NCBI GenBank assembly: GCA_029213265.1
Contig: JARGNG010000016.1
Coordinates: forward strand, 39,295-103,294
Direction: 5' to 3'
DNA: 64,000 bases
Source of the DNA: Verrucomicrobiales bacterium
GTDB taxonomy: Bacteria > Verrucomicrobiota > Verrucomicrobiia > Verrucomicrobiales > DEV007
Shown one piece after another: positions 5,137 to 43,502 of the stretch. Numbering within the stretch: position 1 is the stretch's first letter; each line of letters begins with the position of its first letter. Both the position numbers and the translations under genes were made by a program. The notes under the pieces were generated by a model. The model saw nothing but the letters and a program-made list of their open reading frames with translations. It did not search any database and had not been told where the DNA came from.

Positions 5137-7110
5137 TCAGTTCATTCCTTCGAGCTCCGCGATCTCTTTTCGGAACCCGCTGCTCAAAATCGGGAAGCGA
5201 CACCATGTTTTCGGATCGAGGTTCTTGTCGTCGACATGAAACCCGGGCGCATAGCGTTCGCGCTTCCATTGATTCCGGCTCCAGAGGCGGAAGAATTTGA
5301 TCACCCAGAGTTTGAGCTGCTCACGATCGTAGCTGTCATGGGATTCGCACATCCGCTCCCAAACTTCGGCAGGAAGCTTCTTATCCCGAATCGCCAGTTT
5401 CTCGATCGCGTCGAGCACAGGATAGGGCATCAGGTCTGACTCGTCTGTTTGCTTGTCCTCGCTGGGGCGAAGTTCCGCAGTCGGAGCCTGGACGTTGATG
5501 ACGCTCAAGGCAGAGATGGGAGGAATGTCAGGTTTACAACCGGTCGTTTCGAGCCATCTCAGCCATTCCCGGAGAAACGCTTTATCAATTCCGGAAATCG
5601 GGCAGAGGCCACCGCTGGTGTCTCCGTCCATTGTCGCGTAGCCAACCGCGGCTTCGGAGCGATTGCTTGTTGAGAGGAGTAATGCGTTTTTGATGTTGGT
5701 GAGCATCCAGATTCCGGGGGAGCGAACTCGGGCCTGAATGTTTTGCAGAGCAATGTCGTCGCTTTCCCATGCCAGGTCGCGTCCGATCCCTTTCTCGATC
5801 ATGGCACGATATCCCTGGACCAGTTCATCGACGTCCCATTCCTGATATTCAGCCCCGATCGCCTTCGCGACCGTCTCAGCGGCGTTGCGTGTCGTCTCCG
5901 AGCTGTTCCTCGTTGCTTGATAGACACAGGTCAGAAGACGCTCCGTAATGTCCTGTTCTCCGAAAGAGATATGTCCCAGTTTTTTACGAAAAGCTTTCTC
6001 ACCGAGGTCTTCGATGCCAAGATCGATCATCAGTCGTACGAGAACGGCCGTGGCAGCGGAATCGGCGCCTCCACTCAGGGAAACCACAAAACCTCCCGAG
6101 TAGCTCTTGCGAAGGTAGTCGAAAAGACCCAGGGCAATGACGCGGGAAAATTCCTCTTCCTTCGTTTCTTCGCCGATCGCAGCTTCGCTTCTACCGGTTT
6201 GTACGGGTCCGTTCCATTCGGGAGTGTATTCGACATGGATGGTCAATCCGTCGGGCTCACCCACGATGGGTCGATGGCTCACTTGCCGGGCCTGGTGCAG
6301 CCGGGTCAAATTGAGGTCGATCGTAGCTGCCGTAAGAACGTGGTCGTGATAGGAAAATCTCCGTCCCTCTGCAAGGTAGTCTCCCCCGCAGGCGATCACC
6401 GTTCCACCATCGTAGATGATTCGCCCCGCTTCGTTGCCGAGTAGATTGGCATACACATAGCCACAGGCAAAAGCCCGTGATCCTTCCAGAACAAACCGCT
6501 CGCGAACGCTTTGTTTTCCGAAGGCGAAATGGCTCGCGCTGGGATTGAAAATCAAATCGACTCCCCGGCGGGCGAGTCGGGTTCCGGGGCGATCGGCGAC
6601 CCAGGCATCCTCGCAGACTTCAAAACCGAGCCGGACTCCCCCGATCGAAAAAACCAAATCCCCCAGTGGGAGCTTTTTCCCGGAGATGTCGATCTCCTCC
6701 ACCTGGCCTACCGGCCATGGTTTGAACCAGCGGGGCTCGTAGTGCAGTCCGTCTCCGGCCAGGTTCTGTTTCGCGACAAAGCCGACAATCTCCTTGTCCA
6801 CGATCAGGGCGACCGCATTGTAAACGGAACTTTCAAACCAGAGGGGAAGTCCGACCGCGACGACAATGCCTTTGCATTCCATCGCCAGTTCTTTGAGGGC
6901 GGTAACAGCGCGCTCGCCCACTTCAGGCGCCAGGAACATGTCTTCGCATCCATATCCGGTCAGAGAAAGTTCCGGGAGGCAGAGAAAGCCCACGCCTTCT
7001 TCCCGGGCTTCCTCGATTGCCGCTACGGCACGACGGAAGTTTCCCTCCCAGTCGAGAGGGATCTGGTTCAGACAGGCTGCTCCGGCGACAACACGATTCA
7101 TAGGAGACAA
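5137..7110 (-). CDS. nadE: Glutamine-dependent NAD+ synthetase
   Basis: N-terminal nitrilase domain (LPELSLTGY, EVCED) plus SGGADS and NIQARVR synthetase motifs. Confidence 0.95.
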   Translation of the reverse strand: MSPMNRVVAGAACLNQIPLDWEGNFRRAVAAIEEAREEGVGFLCLPELSLTGYGCEDMFLAPEVGERAVTALKELAMECKGIVVAVGLPLWFESSVYNAVALIVDKEIVGFVAKQNLAGDGLHYEPRWFKPWPVGQVEEIDISGKKLPLGDLVFSIGGVRLGFEVCEDAWVADRPGTRLARRGVDLIFNPSASHFAFGKQSVRERFVLEGSRAFACGYVYANLLGNEAGRIIYDGGTVIACGGDYLAEGRRFSYHDHVLTAATIDLNLTRLHQARQVSHRPIVGEPDGLTIHVEYTPEWNGPVQTGRSEAAIGEETKEEEFSRVIALGLFDYLRKSYSGGFVVSLSGGADSAATAVLVRLMIDLGIEDLGEKAFRKKLGHISFGEQDITERLLTCVYQATRNSSETTRNAAETVAKAIGAEYQEWDVDELVQGYRAMIEKGIGRDLAWESDDIALQNIQARVRSPGIWMLTNIKNALLLSTSNRSEAAVGYATMDGDTSGGLCPISGIDKAFLREWLRWLETTGCKPDIPPISALSVINVQAPTAELRPSEDKQTDESDLMPYPVLDAIEKLAIRDKKLPAEVWERMCESHDSYDREQLKLWVIKFFRLWSRNQWKRERYAPGFHVDDKNLDPKTWCRFPILSSGFRKEIAELEGMN

Positions 7111-38568: not shown

Positions 38569-39528
38569 TTGATCAAAAAGATGCCTGCCGATTCCCACAT
38601 TCTCCGTCGAGCCAGCTGGCTGTCCTTCTGGATTGGAGGATTCATGCTCGTGCTGAAATGCGCGGCCTGGTGGATGACCCGCTCCAGTGCGATCCTCAGT
38701 GATGCAGCGGAGTCGATTGTCCATGTAGCGGCCGTGGCCTTTGTCGTTTACAGCCTGCGCCTTTCCCAAAAACCTCCGGATCAGGACCACCCCTACGGCC
38801 ACGCCAAGATTTCCTTTTTCTCCGCCGGTTTTGAAGGCGGCCTGATTTCCATCGCGGGAGTTTTCATCCTTGTCCAGGCGATCCAGCAATGGATCTCCGG
38901 CATCGCACCTCACGATCTCGGTTCCGGAAGCCTGCTCGTAGCGATCGCGCTCGTGATCAACGCCTGGCTCGGTTGGTACTTGGTTCGCCTGGGCAAAAGG
39001 CATGATTCACTCATTCTCGAGGCAAATGGAAACCATGTCCTCGTCGATGCCTGGACCAGTCTCGGGATTCTCGTGGGATTGCTTCTCACCTGGCTGGCCG
39101 GTTGGCCCTGGCTGGATCCCCTCTGCGCCATCCTCGTTTCCATTCATATTCTCCGGAATGGAATCGGTCTGCTCTGGCGAAGCGCCAACGGATTGATGGA
39201 CCGGGCCGATCCGGAAATTCAGAAGTCTCTTATGGAGGTCCTCGATCGCGAAACGGAAAAATCCGGAATCTCCTGGCACCAACTCCGGCAACGACATCTC
39301 GGAGACGGGCACTGGGTGGACTTTCACCTGGTCTTTGAGGATGAAACCACGGTCCGGGATGCGCATGAAGTGGCATCGAGGATCGAGCAAGAGGTCCGCG
39401 ACGAGTTGGGAGCATCTACGGTTGTGACCAGTCATCTCGAACCTGCGGATGATCATGAGCGGATTCATGGGCATGCCCCCGGTGAGCCCGTCCCGGATCC
39501 GCTCAGTGGCCGCCCCCTCCCTGATTGA
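38569..39528 (+). CDS. Cation diffusion facilitator (FieF-like) transporter
   Basis: SDAAESIVH, HPYGHAK, ANGNHVLVD, AHEVAS. Confidence 0.92.
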   Translation: MIKKMPADSHILRRASWLSFWIGGFMLVLKCAAWWMTRSSAILSDAAESIVHVAAVAFVVYSLRLSQKPPDQDHPYGHAKISFFSAGFEGGLISIAGVFILVQAIQQWISGIAPHDLGSGSLLVAIALVINAWLGWYLVRLGKRHDSLILEANGNHVLVDAWTSLGILVGLLLTWLAGWPWLDPLCAILVSIHILRNGIGLLWRSANGLMDRADPEIQKSLMEVLDRETEKSGISWHQLRQRHLGDGHWVDFHLVFEDETTVRDAHEVASRIEQEVRDELGASTVVTSHLEPADDHERIHGHAPGEPVPDPLSGRPLPD

Positions 39529-39541
39529 TTCAATCAGTTCA

Positions 39542-39589
39542 CTATAGTAATGGATCGGAGCTTGACTTTACTATAGAGTAGTGTAAGGT
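39542..39589 (+). promoter_or_regulatory. Sigma70-like promoter overlapped by a 9-bp inverted repeat
   Basis: TTGACT (39562-67), N16, TAAGGT (39584-89); CTATAGTAA (39542-50) / TTACTATAG (39568-76) brackets the -35. Confidence 0.55.
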
Positions 39590-39609
39590 CCCCGGAGAAA
39601 AATATTCAA

Positions 39610-39819
39610 ATGGTAATACGTAGTAACAGATTTATGCAGACATCGACATCTGGTCGGTGGGAGGGCCATCGTGCCCCCATGCAACTTCTCTATCTCCGTA
39701 GTCAGTTGAATCATAGGGACCCAAATCCTGAGGATTGTTTGATTGGTAAGGAGCTGAACGCTGATTTTGGAGCGTTTTCCGACACCGGGAAGAACGAAGG
39801 GAGGGCCAGGTTTACGTAG
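39610..39819 (+). CDS. Small ORF (69 aa), possible leader of the RNA locus
   Basis: Lies between the promoter and a terminator; no recognisable family. Confidence 0.35.
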   Translation: MVIRSNRFMQTSTSGRWEGHRAPMQLLYLRSQLNHRDPNPEDCLIGKELNADFGAFSDTGKNEGRARFT

Positions 39820-39848
39820 TGAATTCGTAACAGAATTCCATGGTCGTG

Positions 39849-39879
39849 AACCCGCTCTCCGAAAGGAAGCGGGTTTTTT
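39849..39879 (+). terminator. Intrinsic terminator/attenuator ahead of the RNA array
   Basis: AACCCGCT-CTCC-GAAA-GGA-AGCGGGTT followed by TTTT. Confidence 0.8.
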
Positions 39880-39959
39880 GTTGTGTAACCCATTGAAAAT
39901 CAATGGAAAGTAGGGGCTGGAACAGGGCTGCGATACGAAAAAGAAGAACAAAAATATGA

Positions 39960-40466
39960 AAAGCCCGCCGCCAGGTGAGACTGACGACGGGCCGATGAAA
40001 GCGAAGGATCAATGGGATTGATCGCTTGCTCACGCAAGAGAAACGATAGCGTTCTATTTCAATCGGTCAAGTAAAGCAGGGCTGGTTGCCTGCTCGCCGG
40101 ACAGTTGTGTCCGGTAGTAACGAACTTCGCCTTCTATGAAAACTTTATGTAGTAAAATCTGAAGGCTTTTTGGGAGATGTGCCTGCGAAACATCGAAACG
40201 TCCGCCGGGAAAGCCTGCGGCTGTCTCACTGGAGAGGCAACGGTGTTCGTTCTTTATATGGGATGAAAATGACCGCGCAGGCTCCAGTTGAGACTGTTTG
40301 AGTCGTCCAGTGGAATTCACTGGCGACATGGTTCCGTTTTCGCTCCGGTCGCCGGAAGAGACTTAAAAGAAAAGCAGGTCTAGTCCCCTGTGGCAATCCG
40401 CCGGAAGTTGAGATGGAATTCCAGACTCTCAAAACGGCCTGAATGCGTTTTCATTTTCATCCCCAT
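39960..40466 (+). ncRNA. Large multi-domain structured RNA candidate (GOLLD-like by recollection)
   Basis: More than 10 local hairpins plus long-range helices 40119-125/40245-251, 40260-272/40451-463 (13 bp perfect) and 40334-340/40431-437. Confidence 0.65.
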
Positions 40467-40469
40467 TGC

Positions 40470-40543
40470 ATGTCGTAGCACCAGAAGTGCAGGGCAGTCT
40501 CCAAAACTGTCGCGGCCCGGGGCAGCACCGGGGCGGCTTGCCA
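40470..40543 (+). tRNA. tRNA-Trp(CCA)-like, non-canonical T-loop
   Basis: Acceptor ATGTCGT/GCGGCTT, G73, encoded CCA; anticodon loop CT-CCA-AA; T arm CCCGG-GGCAGCA-CCGGG. Confidence 0.7.
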
Positions 40544-40570
40544 TTTCTTCTCGCGGTTTTACCGCGGTAG

Positions 40571-40630
40571 AAAGTGGAAAGGTGAAAGGTTCCAATCGGA
40601 TTGGAACAGTTTTTCACTTTCCCACTTTTT
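40571..40630 (+). terminator. Long imperfect hairpin plus T-run after tRNA-Trp
   Basis: AAAGTGG/CCACTTT, GTGAAA/TTTCAC, GTTCCAA/TTGGAAC stacked stems, then T-run. Confidence 0.5.
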
Positions 40631-40748
40631 AGATGTAGCTCCGGCTATGCCGGAAGCTCGATGAAGTCGAGACGAATGAAACGGCGGTTCATCCGGGGGA
40701 GCAGCGAATCCGCCGCCTCCGGCCGGTAGGAGCATTTCGAAATCCTTT

Positions 40749-40822
40749 ACCAGTCTAGCTGAGACAGATTAGCGTGTCGTTGAAGGCGATGAGAGGTCGG
40801 TGCAATTCCGACGGCTGGTGCC
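40749..40822 (+). tRNA. tRNA-Phe(GAA)-like, non-canonical T-loop
   Basis: Acceptor ACCAGTC/GGCTGGT; D stem GCTG/TAGC; loop TT-GAA-GG; T arm GTCGG-TGCAATT-CCGAC; 3' G-CC. Confidence 0.65.
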
Positions 40823-40832
40823 TTTGAGCGAT

Positions 40833-40964
40833 ATCCCCGTGGTGTAAGAGAAGCATAACGTTCTGCGCGCCGTGCGTAACGAGACTGATTGCTCTCTGAG
40901 CAACCCGAAGGGCAGCATTGCAGTCAAGGTGTCGGATCAGGTGCAAATCCTGGCATGGATACCA
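40833..40964 (+). tRNA. tRNA-like gene with a 58-nt structured insertion in the anticodon loop
   Basis: Acceptor ATCCCCG/CATGGAT (2 mismatches), A73-CCA; D arm GTGT/GCAT; AC stem ACGTT/GGTGT around a 65-nt loop CT...AA; T arm TCAGG-TGCAAAT-CCTGG. Confidence 0.55.
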
Positions 40965-40971
40965 TCTCAAT

Positions 40972-41046
40972 TCCTCTGAAGCATTTACAGTGATGCACCG
41001 GCCTTTTAATCCGGTGAAGAAGGGGCAGTACCTTCCGGGGGAACCA
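40972..41046 (+). tRNA. tRNA-Lys(TTT)-like, non-canonical T-loop
   Basis: Acceptor TCCTCTG/CGGGGGA, A73-CCA; D stem GCAT/ATGC; loop CT-TTT-AA; T arm GAAGG-GGCAGTA-CCTTC. Confidence 0.7.
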
Positions 41047-41179
41047 ATTTTCAGGACCTGAAGAAATACGGCGGACTCGTCGCGTAGGCAATTTGCGCGG
41101 CCCGCTTAGAAAGTCGATTTCAGGCATTCAACACTCAACTTTGAACGTGCATCTCTGAACGGTGCACGTTCTCCAGATC

Positions 41180-41254
41180 CCAGTCGTGGTGTAATCAGCA
41201 GCATTCTACCCTGTGAAGGTAGCGGAGCGGGTGCAAATCCCGTCGACCGGACCA
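41180..41254 (+). tRNA. tRNA-His(GTG)-like, lacking G-1/C73
   Basis: Acceptor CCAGTCG/CGACCGG, A73-CCA; CTACC-CT-GTG-AA-GGTAG; T arm GCGGG-TGCAAAT-CCCGT. Confidence 0.72.
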
Positions 41255-41302
41255 TCTTACAAACTCTTTTCCAGAAGGGAGGCATAGAGTTCCTTCGTCC
41301 TC

Positions 41303-41325
41303 ATAACGGTCTTAAGGTAGCGAAA
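41303..41325 (+). other. 23-nt 23S rRNA-like segment (E. coli 1916-1938, one mismatch)
   Basis: ATAACGGTCTTAAGGTAGCGAAA versus conserved ATAACGGTCCTAAGGTAGCGAAA. Confidence 0.8.
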
Positions 41326-41464
41326 ATCGAGCGGTCGATTCAGCGATCAAGCCCTCGAGACGATGAAATTTCTCGAACAGGCATTCGTGCCTTCGTTCGG
41401 GAGATCGAGTCGATTTCTTTGTAGCCATACCCTCCGGAATCCACCTTCGGATTTCGGATTGATA

Positions 41465-41519
41465 GGAAAGGAGGTGGTGGGCCGGCGCATGAGTGCCGGC
41501 CCGTTCCCTTCCTTTTTCC
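41465..41519 (+). promoter_or_regulatory. Long hairpin sequestering a 10-nt Shine-Dalgarno and an ATG
   Basis: GGAAAGGAGG...GGGCCGGC-GCATGAGT-GCCGGCCC...CCCTTCCTTTTTCC. Confidence 0.45.
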
Positions 41520-41595
41520 TCAAAAAAAACTCGTTTACAAACTGTTACGAAATTCAATTTTGAACTAAAACCAAACCAACTCATCTTATATCACC

Positions 41596-42183
41596 ATGAG
41601 CGCTTCGATCTTGCATCAGAATATCGTTCTGGTTCTCAACCGGAACTGGCAGGCGATCAATACGAGAACCCCTGCCGAAGCTTTCTGCCAAATGGCGACC
41701 GATACCGCGACTGCGCTCGATATCCAGGGCACGGACTTTATGGTCCCCACGAAGTGGAATGACTGGCAGAAGCTGGAAGTCCGCGAGGGCGATGCCAGCA
41801 TCGGGACGGCGCATGGACGAATCCGTGTTCCGACCGTAATTGTTGTCGCCAACTTTGCCAAGGTGCCGAAGAAGCGGCCTAAGTTCAATTCCCGAAATAT
41901 CTGGGAACGCGATGGCGGACGGTGCCAATACACGGGACGGAATCTTCGTCCCGGCGAAGGCAACATCGACCATGTCCTGCCGCGCTCGCGCGGCGGAGAC
42001 ACTACCTGGGAAAACTGTGTTCTTGCCGCTCGCGAGGTGAATTCGCGCAAAGCTGACAAGACTCCGGAAGAAGCGGGCTTGCGATTGCGGAAGGCCCCGA
42101 GGACTCCGCCGGAACTCCCTGTCACGATGTTGCTGCGAAACGTGCACGATATCTCTGACTGGGACCCGTTCCTTCCCGGGTAG
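41596..42183 (+). CDS. HNH endonuclease (McrA/HNH_5-like, tRNA-array type)
   Basis: VLVLNRNWQAI, RVPTVIV, NIWERDGGRCQYTG, IDHVLPRSRGGDTTWENCV, NSRKADKTPEEAG. Confidence 0.9.
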   Translation: MSASILHQNIVLVLNRNWQAINTRTPAEAFCQMATDTATALDIQGTDFMVPTKWNDWQKLEVREGDASIGTAHGRIRVPTVIVVANFAKVPKKRPKFNSRNIWERDGGRCQYTGRNLRPGEGNIDHVLPRSRGGDTTWENCVLAAREVNSRKADKTPEEAGLRLRKAPRTPPELPVTMLLRNVHDISDWDPFLPG

Positions 42184-42342
42184 GCTGTAGCCGGCCCCGG
42201 CGAGGCCGGAAGGACGTAAATGAGTTCCCTCAGCACTCCTTCCCGGCTCGAAGATCCGGGCAACGACTCTGTGCGGAAACACTTTCACTGTCGCGCGGTC
42301 TCGAAGGGCGTCCCGTAGAGATCCCGCTTCTTGGCAGGAAAA

Positions 42343-42414
42343 CACAAGGTAGCTCACTGGTAGACCCTCAGACTGATACTCTGATTGTAGCCGGTTCGAT
42401 TCCGGCCCTGGTTT
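42343..42414 (+). tRNA. Degenerate tRNA-Ile(GAT)-like (pseudo-tRNA)
   Basis: TCAGA-CT-GAT-AC-TCTGA; canonical T arm GCCGG-TTCGATT-CCGGC; mismatched acceptor and D stems; no CCA. Confidence 0.55.
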
Positions 42415-42433
42415 GGAAAACCCGAAAACAAAC

Positions 42434-42604
42434 GACCCGCTCCTTTTGCCAGCCATCAGCCGACTTTTTCGAAAGCCCGGCAGCTGCAAGGCAGCTTTGC
42501 GAATCAACTCACTCGCGCCACCCCGGAGGATTCCCGAATTCCGAGGCGTGTCGATGACAGTTCGGTTCCCGCTGTGGAGCAGTGATGGCGGAAGGCAGCG
42601 GGTC
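42434..42604 (+). ncRNA. ~170-nt structured RNA candidate closed by a long bulged terminal helix
   Basis: GACCCGCT/AGCGGGTC, CCTTTT/GGAAGG with a single bulged C, GCCATCA/TGATGGC; inner AGCTGC-AAG-GCAGCT. Confidence 0.45.
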
Positions 42605-42687
42605 CTCTCCTTCTTGAAAGAACGAACACCGTTTCCCCTCCCGCTATTCTTCCAAAATTGTATTTTTGTTAGAAATGAAAAAGAAAA

Positions 42688-43467
42688 ATGGAAACTGTAA
42701 TCACCATCGCAACCATCGTTGCGGCAATCGCCCTCTGGGCGGCTTCTGTGAAGCTGGTGAACGACTACGTCGAAACCGTAACGATCTGGGACTACCAGAC
42801 CGGGCTCCACTTCAAGAACGGGTGCTATCTCGAATCTCTTGAGGCGGGAAAGCATCGTCTCTGGGGGCGCGGACATTCCGTGATTGTCTTCGATCAACGT
42901 GCTTTCGAACTGGTGGTTCAGAGACAGGAACTGATCACGAGCGACAGCGCGACCGTGAAGCTGACCGCCGTTACCCAGTGGAAAATCGCTGATGCCCTGA
43001 AGTTTCATCTCGGAGTCGATAACGCCCACCAGGCGCTTTACACGCTGGTGCAACTGGCAATGCGTCGGGTTATCGGTGGCCTCGATCTCGATGCGGTGAT
43101 CGAACAGAAAGCGGACTTCGGGAAAACGCTTCTCAAGGAAGTGAAGGGGGACGCGTTCGAAGAACTCGGAATCGGGGTGGGCCGAATTGAAATTCGCGAT
43201 GTGATGCTGAGCGGAGAGCTGAAAAGTTCCTACGCCGGAGTGATCACAGCTCGTAAAGAGGCTCAGGCCCAGCAGGAGCGTGCTCGCGGTGACGCGGCGG
43301 CTCTGCGAACCTTCGCCAACGCGGCTCGAGTCTACGAAAACAACCCGGAGCTCTTCCGCCTGCGTTACCTCGAAACGCTGAAGGAGGCAGGGACCGGATA
43401 CGGAAAGCAGCTCATCATCGGAGTTCCTGAGGAACTGATGGGGCTGGTGAAGAAATCAAACGAATAA
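42688..43467 (+). CDS. Slipin / SPFH (Band 7) domain protein
   Basis: N-terminal TM; LEAGKHRLW, QELITSDSATVKL, IRDVMLSG, AAALRTFANAARVYENNPELFRLRYLETL. Confidence 0.88.
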   Translation: METVITIATIVAAIALWAASVKLVNDYVETVTIWDYQTGLHFKNGCYLESLEAGKHRLWGRGHSVIVFDQRAFELVVQRQELITSDSATVKLTAVTQWKIADALKFHLGVDNAHQALYTLVQLAMRRVIGGLDLDAVIEQKADFGKTLLKEVKGDAFEELGIGVGRIEIRDVMLSGELKSSYAGVITARKEAQAQQERARGDAAALRTFANAARVYENNPELFRLRYLETLKEAGTGYGKQLIIGVPEELMGLVKKSNE

Positions 43468-43474
43468 CCAAAAG

Positions 43475-43502
43475 GGGGTGCGCCCACGAAAGGGCGCACC
43501 TC
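43475..43502 (+). terminator. Terminator hairpin after slipin
   Basis: GGGGTGCGCCC-ACGAAA-GGGCGCACCTC. Confidence 0.7.

Follow-up and report, generated by a model that had tools for sequence, protein, structure and literature searches.

The window analyzed here is a 64,000-nucleotide (nt) stretch of Verrucomicrobiales bacterium (DEV007; assembly GCA_029213265.1, contig JARGNG010000016.1, positions 39,295 to 103,294 of the forward strand), and all coordinates below are window based. Between positions 39542 and 43502 it holds a locus in which a structured leader RNA, a short array of tRNA-like genes, an HNH nuclease gene, and a slipin-like gene of the SPFH/Band-7 family follow one another on the plus strand. 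We conclude that this locus is probably a reduced, partly decayed member of an operon that is patchily distributed among Verrucomicrobiota and that would serve as a conditional reserve of tRNAs or decoys coupled to RNA repair. The locus is a variant of the stress-induced tRNA arrays known from cyanobacteria, and three of its parts are worth following up: the leader motif, a class of array tRNAs with a G at T-loop position 55 (the G55 class), and the complementarity between the leader tail and the 5' untranslated regions (UTRs) of downstream genes.

An earlier reading of the window (the original prediction) had described a nearly coding-free region of about 2 kb that carried tRNA-like folds, a large structured RNA, further folded modules, and an rRNA-like piece, and it interpreted the whole as a silent stress module supplying RNAs that mimic tRNA and rRNA. 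Most of this description was confirmed, and the interpretation was supported in part: an RNA-centered module for tRNA supply and RNA repair stands, whereas a GOLLD RNA, an rRNA mimic, a Y RNA, and a single large RNA do not. The 2067 nt at 39529 to 41595, between the cation-diffusion-facilitator (CDF) gene that forms the left neighbor (38569 to 39528) and the HNH gene, do lack conserved protein genes except for a 69-codon open reading frame (ORF) and a 12-codon remnant of Ro60, and a further 504 nt of noncoding sequence separate the HNH and SPFH/Band-7 genes. Rfam searches of the window, at the gathering threshold and at E values up to 10, and of 18 related loci, at the gathering threshold, returned no family other than tRNA; GOLLD, ROOL, Y RNA, hammerhead, 6S, and T-box were rejected as candidates on this basis.

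A leader RNA, tRNA arrays, and RNA repair genes across Verrucomicrobiota

We scanned a collection of species-representative genomes with a pattern describing the leader motif, which we call module A. At least 119 stretches matched, 117 of which were real, and these stretch and locus counts are lower bounds. The labels listed for the 117 real stretches were all Verrucomicrobiota, except for a few generic or mislabelled metagenome-assembled genome titles, and among the matches listed, the loci fell into four orders: Verrucomicrobiales, Methylacidiphilales, Chthoniobacterales, and subdivision 3. Across at least 117 loci, the arrangement is that of a leader, followed by a same-strand tRNA array and then by Ro60, RtcB, an RNA ligase, a 275-amino-acid (aa) unknown protein, and HNH. 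The arrays contain up to 16 ARAGORN-detectable tRNAs, and the genes that relatives encode between array and HNH include Ro60 (TROVE plus vWA domains), RtcB, and an RNA ligase combining a PHA02142 OB fold with an RNA_ligase domain. In subdivision 3, the leader motif lies directly before RtcB.

The original prediction had connected the locus with translation stress and RNA repair, and this connection gained support, in that loci of the same genus and order place Ro60/TROVE, RtcB, and RNA ligase between array and HNH while the window keeps a Ro60 remnant. When the neighborhoods of HNH and slipin homologs were compared, arrays, Ro60, RtcB, and the ligase recurred beside HNH. With a covariance model of the leader, matches were obtained in 8 of 401 genomes sampled evenly from the phylum and in 6 of their 185 genera; the system is therefore patchy, which is consistent with horizontal spread. 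The UDG-CDF synteny of the locus is kept in the window's genus, which indicates vertical inheritance there as well. Even close relatives differ greatly in array content. We also noted that the 275-aa protein, which has no Pfam match, recurs between the array and RtcB or Ro60 in L031 (about -3027 to -2200 relative to HNH), L085, L117, and L138, and that L024 has a gene for a Uma2-family putative endonuclease between Ro60 and HNH (-1070 to -513 relative to HNH).

The leader helices covary. In an alignment of 110 distinct sequences (A2), 91% of helix cells were paired, compared with 31 to 49% when the partners were slid, and 132 cells carried double changes, compared with 33 in shuffles; the observed values were reached by none of 500 shuffles, and the cell counts overstate the number of independent events, since many of the at least 117 loci are closely related. 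Changes on both sides were found in eight of the nine pairs considered for P3. The 5-bp P1 showed a single GC-to-AU double change, in three sequences including the window, and the 4-bp P2 was invariant. Loop and junction nucleotides are nearly invariant, as is the 3' tail, and by eye, most loci have a -10-like box 5 to 7 nt upstream of the conserved AGGCUU start. The leader matched nothing in Rfam, even at E values up to 10. A conserved leader RNA with covariation is a candidate sensor or regulator for an operon that serves RNA repair and the supply of tRNAs.

A variant of the leader occurs in seven Methylacidiphilales loci (L068, L083, L099, L105, L130, L155, and L160), where the sequence diverges exactly at the tail (GGAUAUUG instead of GGUGUUCG) and is then followed by a serine recombinase and two ParB-like genes, with several copies per genome. 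The leader tail is a possible attachment site of a mobile element.

In the window, the leader is followed by a spacer that folds as one long imperfect hairpin. Its minimum free energy is -90.1 kcal/mol (z = -6.7), and none of 200 shuffles folded as well. The 13-bp long-range helix proposed by the original prediction is real and lies within this hairpin (40259 to 40465). The corresponding spacers of L095 (z = -4.6) and L065 (z = -3.1) fold into long hairpins as well, whose closing stems differ in sequence.

The G18G19/Psi55 elbow contacts are near-universal in tRNA. We parsed the ARAGORN structures of the 553 array tRNAs listed from 117 loci, a tally in which variant tRNAs are undercounted by ARAGORN, and found a T-loop of the form N-G-C, placing G at position 55, in 446 (81%); 432 of these 446 had no GG in the D-loop. 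A UUC T-loop was present in 97 of the 553, and 96 of the 97 had the D-loop GG. The D-loop of the G55 tRNAs carried the motif A-G-Y in 340 of 446 cases, compared with 15 of 97 in the canonical class. The xGCA T-loops and GG-less D-loops that the original prediction had reported for the window therefore hold, and they generalize across the loci. The G55 class spans nearly all anticodons and is distributed over 89 loci. Its 54/58 pair is U-A in 328 tRNAs and a swapped A-U in 58, its acceptor stem is fully paired in 353 of 446, and 364 of 446 encode the CCA end. Because the 54/58 pair is kept by swapping and so many acceptor stems are intact, the class looks maintained. The controls were canonical: 33 of 34 housekeeping tRNAs of the window genome, and the arrays of Nostoc, Methylibium, and Mycolicibacterium.

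We found no description of a G55 array-tRNA class in the literature searched. Since some contact-dependent-inhibition tRNases cleave between positions 54 and 55 of the T-loop, the altered elbow could confer tRNase resistance, which we offer as a lead drawn by analogy. With the near-universal elbow contacts replaced across almost all anticodons, the class could help to identify the factors, of the cell or of its attackers, that recognize the tRNA elbow, and it could be a source of orthogonal tRNA scaffolds.

The longest inverted repeat of the region joins the leader to the slipin gene: the 3' arm of P3 and the tail (40231 to 40255) are 92% complementary over 25 nt to a site at 42617 to 42641. 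For 65 loci whose downstream sequence extended over at least 1.5 kb and up to 8 kb, we searched for copies of each locus's own tail 16-mer with at most two mismatches. Inverted copies were present in 13 of the 65, all of them 41 to 78 nt upstream of RtcB (7 loci), HNH (5), or slipin (1), and direct copies were found in none of the 65. Lineage-specific variants occur in both copies (T in L081, GGUA in L085, A:U in the window, and 23 of 26 positions in L141), and some of the mismatches between tail and site are U.G compatible on the plus strand. Elsewhere in the genome, the 11-nt tail core recurs on contigs C66, C100, and C125, as often as chance would predict.

Judged by this pattern, tail and site would either pair as RNA over a long range and bracket the array, in the manner of an rRNA processing stalk, or act as a DNA site that works in both orientations. 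Whether RNA duplex or DNA site, the inverted copy precedes slipin, RtcB, and HNH and thereby ties each of them to the leader, and the complementarity would physically link the array with the RtcB, HNH, and SPFH genes. We know of no role for SPFH proteins in RNA repair, which makes their link to the array of particular interest. Separately, the palindrome TTGCCACTTGGCAA lies upstream of the HNH 5' UTR, about 35 to 45 nt upstream of the inverted tail copy, in L031, L032, L044, L045, and L067; it may be an operator or a promoter element for an internal transcript.

Anatomy of the window copy

The features of the window locus are collected in Table 1. Five tRNA-like genes lie within 40468 to 41254, and a sixth follows HNH, all on the plus strand, which is short for a long array. 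The six tRNA-like folds of the original prediction were thus correctly counted: Infernal found three, ARAGORN at a relaxed threshold found the Phe-like gene, and homology revealed the Trp-like and Arg-like genes.

Table 1. Features of the locus and their positions in the window.
Feature	Position	Strand	Details
Small-ORF promoter	39535..39589	+	-35 TTGACT 39562-39567, 16-nt spacer, -10 TAAGGT 39584-39589
Small ORF, 69 codons	39610..39819	+	C-terminus G-R-A-R-F-T-stop alone conserved
Small-ORF intrinsic terminator	39850..39882	+	ACCCGCUCUCC-GAAA-GGAAGCGGG, then U6
Minus-strand small RNA gene, ~85-95 nt	39950..40070	-	Promoter TTGACC-16-TATCGT 40070->40043; terminator hairpin 39993->39962, then U run
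Perfect palindrome, 18 bp	40097..40114		CCGGACA-GTTG-TGTCCGG, between divergent small-RNA and array promoters
Array -10 box and leader RNA (module A)	40153..40258	+	TAAAAT 40153-40158; leader ~40162-40258, 97 nt
Leader helices	P1 40176-40180/40190-40194; P2 40202-40205/40217-40220; P3 40222-40227/40234-40239	+	
Leader 3' tail	40240-40255	+	ACGGUGUUCGUUCUUU, nearly invariant
Spacer, one long imperfect hairpin, 207 nt	40259..40465	+	Closing stem 40260-40279/40444-40463
tRNA-Trp(CCA)-like gene	40468..40544	+	Anticodon loop CUCCAAA, T-loop GGCAGCA, CCA end, one U.U acceptor mismatch
tRNA-Phe(GAA)-like gene	40749..40822	+	T-loop UGCAAUU; ARAGORN at relaxed threshold; homologs in 12 places
tRNA-Arg(GCG)-like gene	40833..40964	+	~60-nt insert after anticodon, T-loop UGCAAAU, CCA end
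tRNA-Lys(UUU)-like gene	40972..41046	+	T-loop GGCAGUA, encoded CCA; 91% identical to same-genus G009 copy
tRNA-His(GUG)-like gene	41180..41254	+	T-loop UGCAAAU, A3.C70 mismatch, no G-1, encoded CCA; ARAGORN and Infernal
23S-like piece	41303..41325	+	22/23 to 23S rRNA of relatives, flanks dissimilar
Ro60/TROVE remnant	41386..41424	+	RAFVREIESISL, last 12 codons and stop
Terminator-like hairpin between array and HNH	41476..41505	+	Consensus scan, 13 pairs; not conserved in relatives
HNH nuclease, 195 aa	41596..42183	+	N-terminal domain of unknown fold and Cas9/IscB-type HNH, intact D125-H126, N140, N149
Conserved hairpin before post-HNH tRNA	42291-42337	+	Common to four same-genus loci, along with the tRNA-like gene
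tRNA-like gene after HNH	42342..42415	+	Canonical UUCGAUU T-loop, anticodon GAU, two acceptor mismatches
Inverted copy of P3 3' arm and tail	42617..42641	+	AAAGAACGAACACCGUUUCCCCUCC; 47-71 nt upstream of slipin start codon
SPFH/Band-7 (slipin-like) gene, 259 aa	42688..43467	+	Pfam Band_7 E 3e-25
Hairpin after slipin	43477-43500	+	

ARAGORN, Infernal, and Rfam all found tRNA-like genes in the locus. The Infernal scores of the three detected genes were 29.7 bits (40972 to 41043), 49 bits (41180 to 41251), and 42 bits (42343 to 42414), making them the three lowest-scoring tRNAs of the genome, in which the remaining tRNAs score 53 to 76 bits. The Trp-like gene has homologs at 26 places in related arrays, and their alignment shows a conserved cloverleaf. 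Because ARAGORN misses variant genes such as 12 of 13 Trp-like copies, standard tRNA finders undercount this kind of gene. Canonical tRNA-His(GUG), tRNA-Lys(UUU), and tRNA-Phe(GAA) genes are present elsewhere in the genome, and the array genes duplicate these housekeeping anticodons; the genome is a 93% complete draft, in which supernumerary status is not checkable for every anticodon.

The Arg-like gene aligns end to end with an uninterrupted tRNA-Arg(ACG) of L095, the insert excepted. The insert is also present in L101 (oriented positions about 5275 to 5420), where the change of a hairpin from GCUC..GAGC to GCGC..GCGC is compensatory. This structured insert of about 60 nt is kept between two genera, matched no ribozyme model, and falls short of the length of a group I intron. 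In the tRNA-like gene after HNH, the body is kept and the anticodon varies (GAU, CAU, and UUC among the aligned homologs of L022 to L024), and a tRNA with the anticodon AAC, not aligned, occupies the equivalent position in L021. Directly after the Trp-like gene lies a near-perfect 64-nt hairpin followed by UUUUU (40568 to 40631), which resembles an internal terminator and is only partly conserved in L065. The hairpins at 40568-40631, 40632-40748, and 41255-41385 were not conserved in related loci, and neither was the 23S-like piece.

The left-hand promoter, leader ORF, and terminator that the original prediction had placed at the left boundary of the locus are present and conserved in 13 loci, but they form a separate upstream unit, and the array has its own promoter-like -10 box and leader (about 40153 to 40258). 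The promoter arrangement TTGAC-N17-TAnnnT is kept in 13 aligned loci; it is bracketed by a 16-nt imperfect inverted repeat (39535-39550/39568-39583) that is not clearly conserved in relatives. The equivalents of the small ORF in 13 loci are 50 to 84 codons long and share their end point, with unconserved bodies. A helix formed by GGUUUACG (39809-39816) and CGUGAACC (39845-39852) contains the final codons and the stop in its 5' arm and shows a compensatory change from ACG/CGU to ACA/UGU in two loci. The terminator gave blastn matches of 33 to 85 nt with 75 to 97% identity in 15 related loci with diverged flanks, and eleven of these matches had at least 90% identity over 33 to 42 nt. When the unit was considered as an attenuator, the 3' arm of the stop-codon helix shared two C residues with the terminator stem, and the alternative pairing was weak. 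Between this terminator and the array lie a convergent minus-strand gene and a second promoter. The complete extra unit (promoter, small ORF, stop helix, and terminator) precedes the array in 13 loci of the window's clade.

The minus-strand gene encodes a predicted small RNA whose promoter and terminator were each picked out independently by a consensus scan. Across 13 loci, the 143 cells of its hairpin comprised 129 Watson-Crick pairs, 14 C.A on the plus strand (equal to G.U on the minus strand), and no G.U on the plus strand. We assigned the hairpin at 39962 to 39993 to the minus strand because its non-Watson-Crick cells were C.A and never G.U when read on the plus strand. All 14 pairs are intact in 12 sequences, and ten pairs show double changes. 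The gene points toward the small ORF and away from the array promoter. Its terminator is preceded by a single-stranded stretch rich in pyrimidines (CCUUCGCUUUC), and duplex prediction between the small RNA and candidate targets was uninformative. Between the two divergent promoters, the palindrome at 40097 to 40114 is a candidate operator on the basis of its sequence, and by eye, relatives have palindromes at the equivalent position, e.g., TGTATCTAGATACA and GGACCACTA..TAGTTGTCC.

These assignments dissolve the single structured RNA of about 500 nt (39960 to 40466) that had been proposed, which is a composite of the minus-strand small RNA gene, the palindrome, the array promoter with its 97-nt leader, and the 207-nt hairpin spacer. 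The G.U versus C.A counts, which place part of the interval on the minus strand, led us to reject one 500-nt RNA, and the small RNA at 39950 to 40070 is likewise the exception to the statement that everything lies on the plus strand. A GOLLD-like large RNA found no match to GOLLD or ROOL models at the gathering threshold or at E values up to 10. Conservation in homologous loci beyond chance was found for three noncoding parts: the leader, the minus-strand small RNA hairpin, and the tail/site repeat.

The HNH and slipin genes of the original prediction are real (Pfam HNH_4, E 4e-9, together with HNH and HNH_5; Band_7, E 3e-25). HNH is 55 to 89% identical across genus and order, its N-terminal domain is invariant, and phrog_16726 covers residues 4 to 173. 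By tblastn, it shares 28 to 33% identity over 84 to 94% of its length with plasmid HNHs of Nostoc, Calothrix, Methylibium petroleiphilum, and Mycolicibacterium. Each of the three plasmid HNHs that we inspected (Nostoc, Methylibium, and Mycolicibacterium, from three other phyla) lies beside 20 to 27 tRNA genes. A large protein search returned close Verrucomicrobiota HNHs only, named 'HNH endonuclease' or 'McrA', PADLOC gave only weak matches of the HNH domain to Cas9 and PtuB models, and an AlphaFold2 model from a 16-sequence alignment was too poor for use (pLDDT 44.6). HNH stays next to UDG/CDF at a fixed chromosomal position even without an array; in the closest relative, G007, whose HNH is 89% identical, everything from CDF to HNH has been lost and HNH has been kept.

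Ten of the 12 residues of the Ro60 remnant match the C-terminus of Ro60 in G009, of the same genus, and the DNA is 83% identical over 54 nt at the equivalent position upstream of HNH. No TROVE gene was found in the window genome, and no RtcB in the window; one RtcB-family gene lies elsewhere in the genome, on contig C80. The 23S-like piece was correctly seen as a 22 of 23 match (41303 to 41325), but its reading as an rRNA mimic fails: the 23-mer is absent from all related loci, is unique to the window genome, and sits in the Ro60 deletion junction. We rejected a functional rRNA mimic for these reasons and take the 23-mer as filler DNA captured in the deletion scar.

The slipin gene follows HNH in G009 (77% identical) and G015 (57%), and in L077 an SPFH gene (37% identical) lies between the array and RtcB. 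In the noncoding sequence upstream of slipin (42416 to 42687), the only conserved pieces found were the inverted tail copy (42617 to 42641) and a short box, CUUUGCGAAUC..UCACUC, at about 42500 to 42525, which was aligned by eye across four loci of the same genus. A Y-RNA-like reading of 42434 to 42604 is thus unsupported. Rfam gave no Y_RNA match in the window or in the 18 related loci, and no dedicated search for a Ro-binding stem was made.

Proposed mode of action and alternatives

In its full form, the operon runs from a promoter through the leader of about 100 nt (module A) and the array to optional Ro60, RtcB, RNA ligase, and SPFH genes and then to HNH, with an array of up to 16 or more supernumerary tRNAs, about 80% of them with G55 in the T-loop, no G18G19, a D-loop A-G-Y, and an encoded CCA. 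By analogy, its most likely role is that of the cyanobacterial long tRNA array (the trn operon): a conditionally expressed reserve of tRNAs or tRNA decoys, coupled to RNA repair and quality control, that would help the cell through attacks on translation or on its normal tRNA pool. The altered elbow may let some factor tell array tRNAs from housekeeping tRNAs, for instance a tRNase that recognizes the T-loop or elbow, a modification enzyme, Ro60, or HNH. The leader probably controls or organizes the transcript, and its tail is complementary to the site that lies 41 to 78 nt before the first gene (RtcB, HNH, or slipin) beyond the bracketed segment. If tail and site paired, the array would be enclosed in a long-range stem, in some loci together with Ro60, RtcB, ligase, and SPFH and here with HNH, much as in rRNA processing stalks. 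Anatomy, conservation, covariation, and gene linkage are observed; we infer that the operon is expressed under stress, that the variant tRNAs have a function, that the tail pairs with its site at the RNA level, and that HNH plays a role. The window copy itself may be only partly functional, because Ro60 is deleted, five or six tRNA-like genes are left, and several have acceptor-stem mismatches.

A bolder form of this idea is a dedicated second tRNA system, in which the full anticodon range would be set on an A18/G55-elbow, encoded-CCA scaffold that is invisible to elbow- or T-loop-directed tRNases and modification enzymes, or that is read by Ro60 or HNH. The leader RNA would sense translation or RNA damage and switch the arrays on, and the tail would pair with the rtcB, HNH, and slipin 5' UTRs for RNase III-type processing or for coupled expression of repair genes. 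We put this forward tentatively, as a possibility that we would not bet on in its entirety.

Several observations weigh against a conditional tRNA reserve coupled to RNA repair. Folded alone, the window leader was no stabler than its shuffles (z = -0.7), and three candidate long-range helices in the leader (ACACC:GGUGU, AACAUC:GGUGUU, and CGAAAC:GUUCG) showed no compensatory changes; since their changes are only one sided and wobble compatible, we claim no long-range helix with the tail. The inverted tail copy was found in only 13 of 65 loci within 8 kb downstream, 31 of the 65 having a listed protein gene in reach, and the complementarity could act as DNA, either as a protein-binding site in two orientations or as a recombination site, an alternative also suggested by the Methylacidiphilales leaders that diverge at the tail motif and continue into a serine recombinase. 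The Anabaena direct-repeat operator (TGTWNWWNW twice, over the -10 box and start) had no match in the window with at most one mismatch; that motif defines a cyanobacterial regulon and not long tRNA arrays generally. G-1 is missing from the His-like gene, the small and degenerate window copy may be in the course of being lost, and HNH could be a selfish homing nuclease, as was proposed for Anabaena (PMC8421152).

The last of these points lead to the reading of the locus as a decaying remnant, i.e., a nonfunctional relic of a horizontally acquired tRNA island that HNH spread as a selfish homing endonuclease and from which the cell uses nothing. Such a relic would account for a Ro60 of 12 codons, an array of five or six members with acceptor mismatches in the Trp-like, insert-bearing Arg-like, His-like, and Ile-like copies, a 23S rDNA fragment in the deletion scar, and a closest relative without the entire array, and it fits the patchiness of the system (8 of 401 evenly sampled genomes) and the homing role proposed by the authors of the Anabaena work (PMC8421152). 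We nevertheless consider it unlikely. Leader, tRNA class, and gene order are maintained over at least 117 loci with covariation and intact stems, and the window's five upstream tRNA-like genes still end in CCA or CC and keep their cloverleaves. HNH, 55 to 89% identical across the order, with an invariant N-terminal domain and a fixed UDG/CDF position even where the array is missing, shows a vertical pattern and not that of a homing element. It is also improbable that the locus is a mobile or invertible cassette, with the tail and its inverted copy as recombination sites or terminal inverted repeats between which the segment is moved or flipped for on/off switching or exchange. Inverted repeats of 16 to 25 bp do flank the array in 13 loci, where no direct copies were seen, the leader of Methylacidiphilales, present in several copies per genome, runs at precisely the tail motif into a serine recombinase and two ParB-like genes, and array content varies greatly among close relatives; yet the window and most loci contain no recombinase, and no flipped state was seen, because the array tRNAs lie on the leader's strand in all 117 loci listed, with at most two stray tRNAs per locus. 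The constant spacing between the right-hand copy and the start codon downstream of it is more in keeping with a 5'-UTR element than with the end of a transposon, and the mismatches between copies include ones that are U.G compatible on the plus strand. An ordinary tRNA cluster of normal isoacceptor copies, with chance hairpins in plain spacer DNA, would agree with the three genes that pass the Rfam tRNA gathering score and with the clustering of tRNA genes in many bacteria. It is very hard to reconcile with the rest and we give it almost no weight, given that these three are the lowest-scoring tRNAs of a genome with canonical His and Lys genes elsewhere, that 446 tRNAs in 89 loci share the departure of T- and D-loops from the housekeeping set, and that the leader, minus-strand small RNA, and tail/site repeat are conserved well beyond chance.

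Comparison with known systems

Like GOLLD and ROOL, the locus has noncoding RNA beside tRNA genes, which for those RNAs often means a mobile context. It differs from them in that no model matched at the gathering threshold or at E values up to 10, and in that the proposed 500-nt RNA consists of separate elements on two strands.

In Salmonella, the rsr-yrlBA-rtcBA operon combines Ro60, Y RNAs that mimic tRNA, and RtcB. RNA repair operons of this type (Chen et al. 2014, PMC4201824) resemble our related loci in having Ro60/TROVE-vWA and RtcB beside tRNA-like RNAs, in the unusual features of these RNAs, and in a nearby SPFH gene. The array RNAs differ in being complete cloverleaves with anticodon arms, CCA ends, and dozens of anticodon types. 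In further contrast to these operons, we saw no RtcR-type regulator, the window itself lacks Ro60 and RtcB, and Rfam detected no Y RNA; no Ro-binding stem was identified, and no dedicated stem search was made.

The processing stalks of rRNA operons arise when leader and spacer pair around 16S or 23S rRNA, and RNase III cuts them. The arrays are similar in that a 5' leader is complementary over 16 to 25 nt to a site kilobases downstream and would bracket stable-RNA genes. They differ in that the downstream site belongs to a protein gene, within its 5' UTR, and that Ro60 and HNH genes can fall inside the bracket.

Long tRNA arrays (L-arrays) are widespread but poorly understood, and to our knowledge, the Anabaena array alone has functional data. 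The array of Anabaena (PCC 7120) is silent, is induced by translation inhibitors, favors survival, and is coregulated with neighboring HNH and rtcB genes (Santamaria-Gomez et al. 2021, PMC8421152). The tRNA array units of mycobacterial plasmids are the same kind of system (Morgado & Vicente 2018, PMC5966550). Compared with these arrays, 81% of the Verrucomicrobiota array tRNAs have G55 and lack G18G19, whereas the arrays of Nostoc, Methylibium, and Mycolicibacterium are canonical. The Verrucomicrobiota array is headed by a conserved structured leader RNA that is not known for other arrays, its HNH gene lies at the 3' end on the same strand and not upstream, and Ro60 and RNA ligase are integrated into its operon; the window copy has only five to six genes. 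Shared with the L-arrays are the many supernumerary tRNA genes in one orientation, the patchy distribution, the linked gene for a homologous two-domain HNH protein, the nearby rtcB-type RNA repair genes, and the protein genes embedded in the array.

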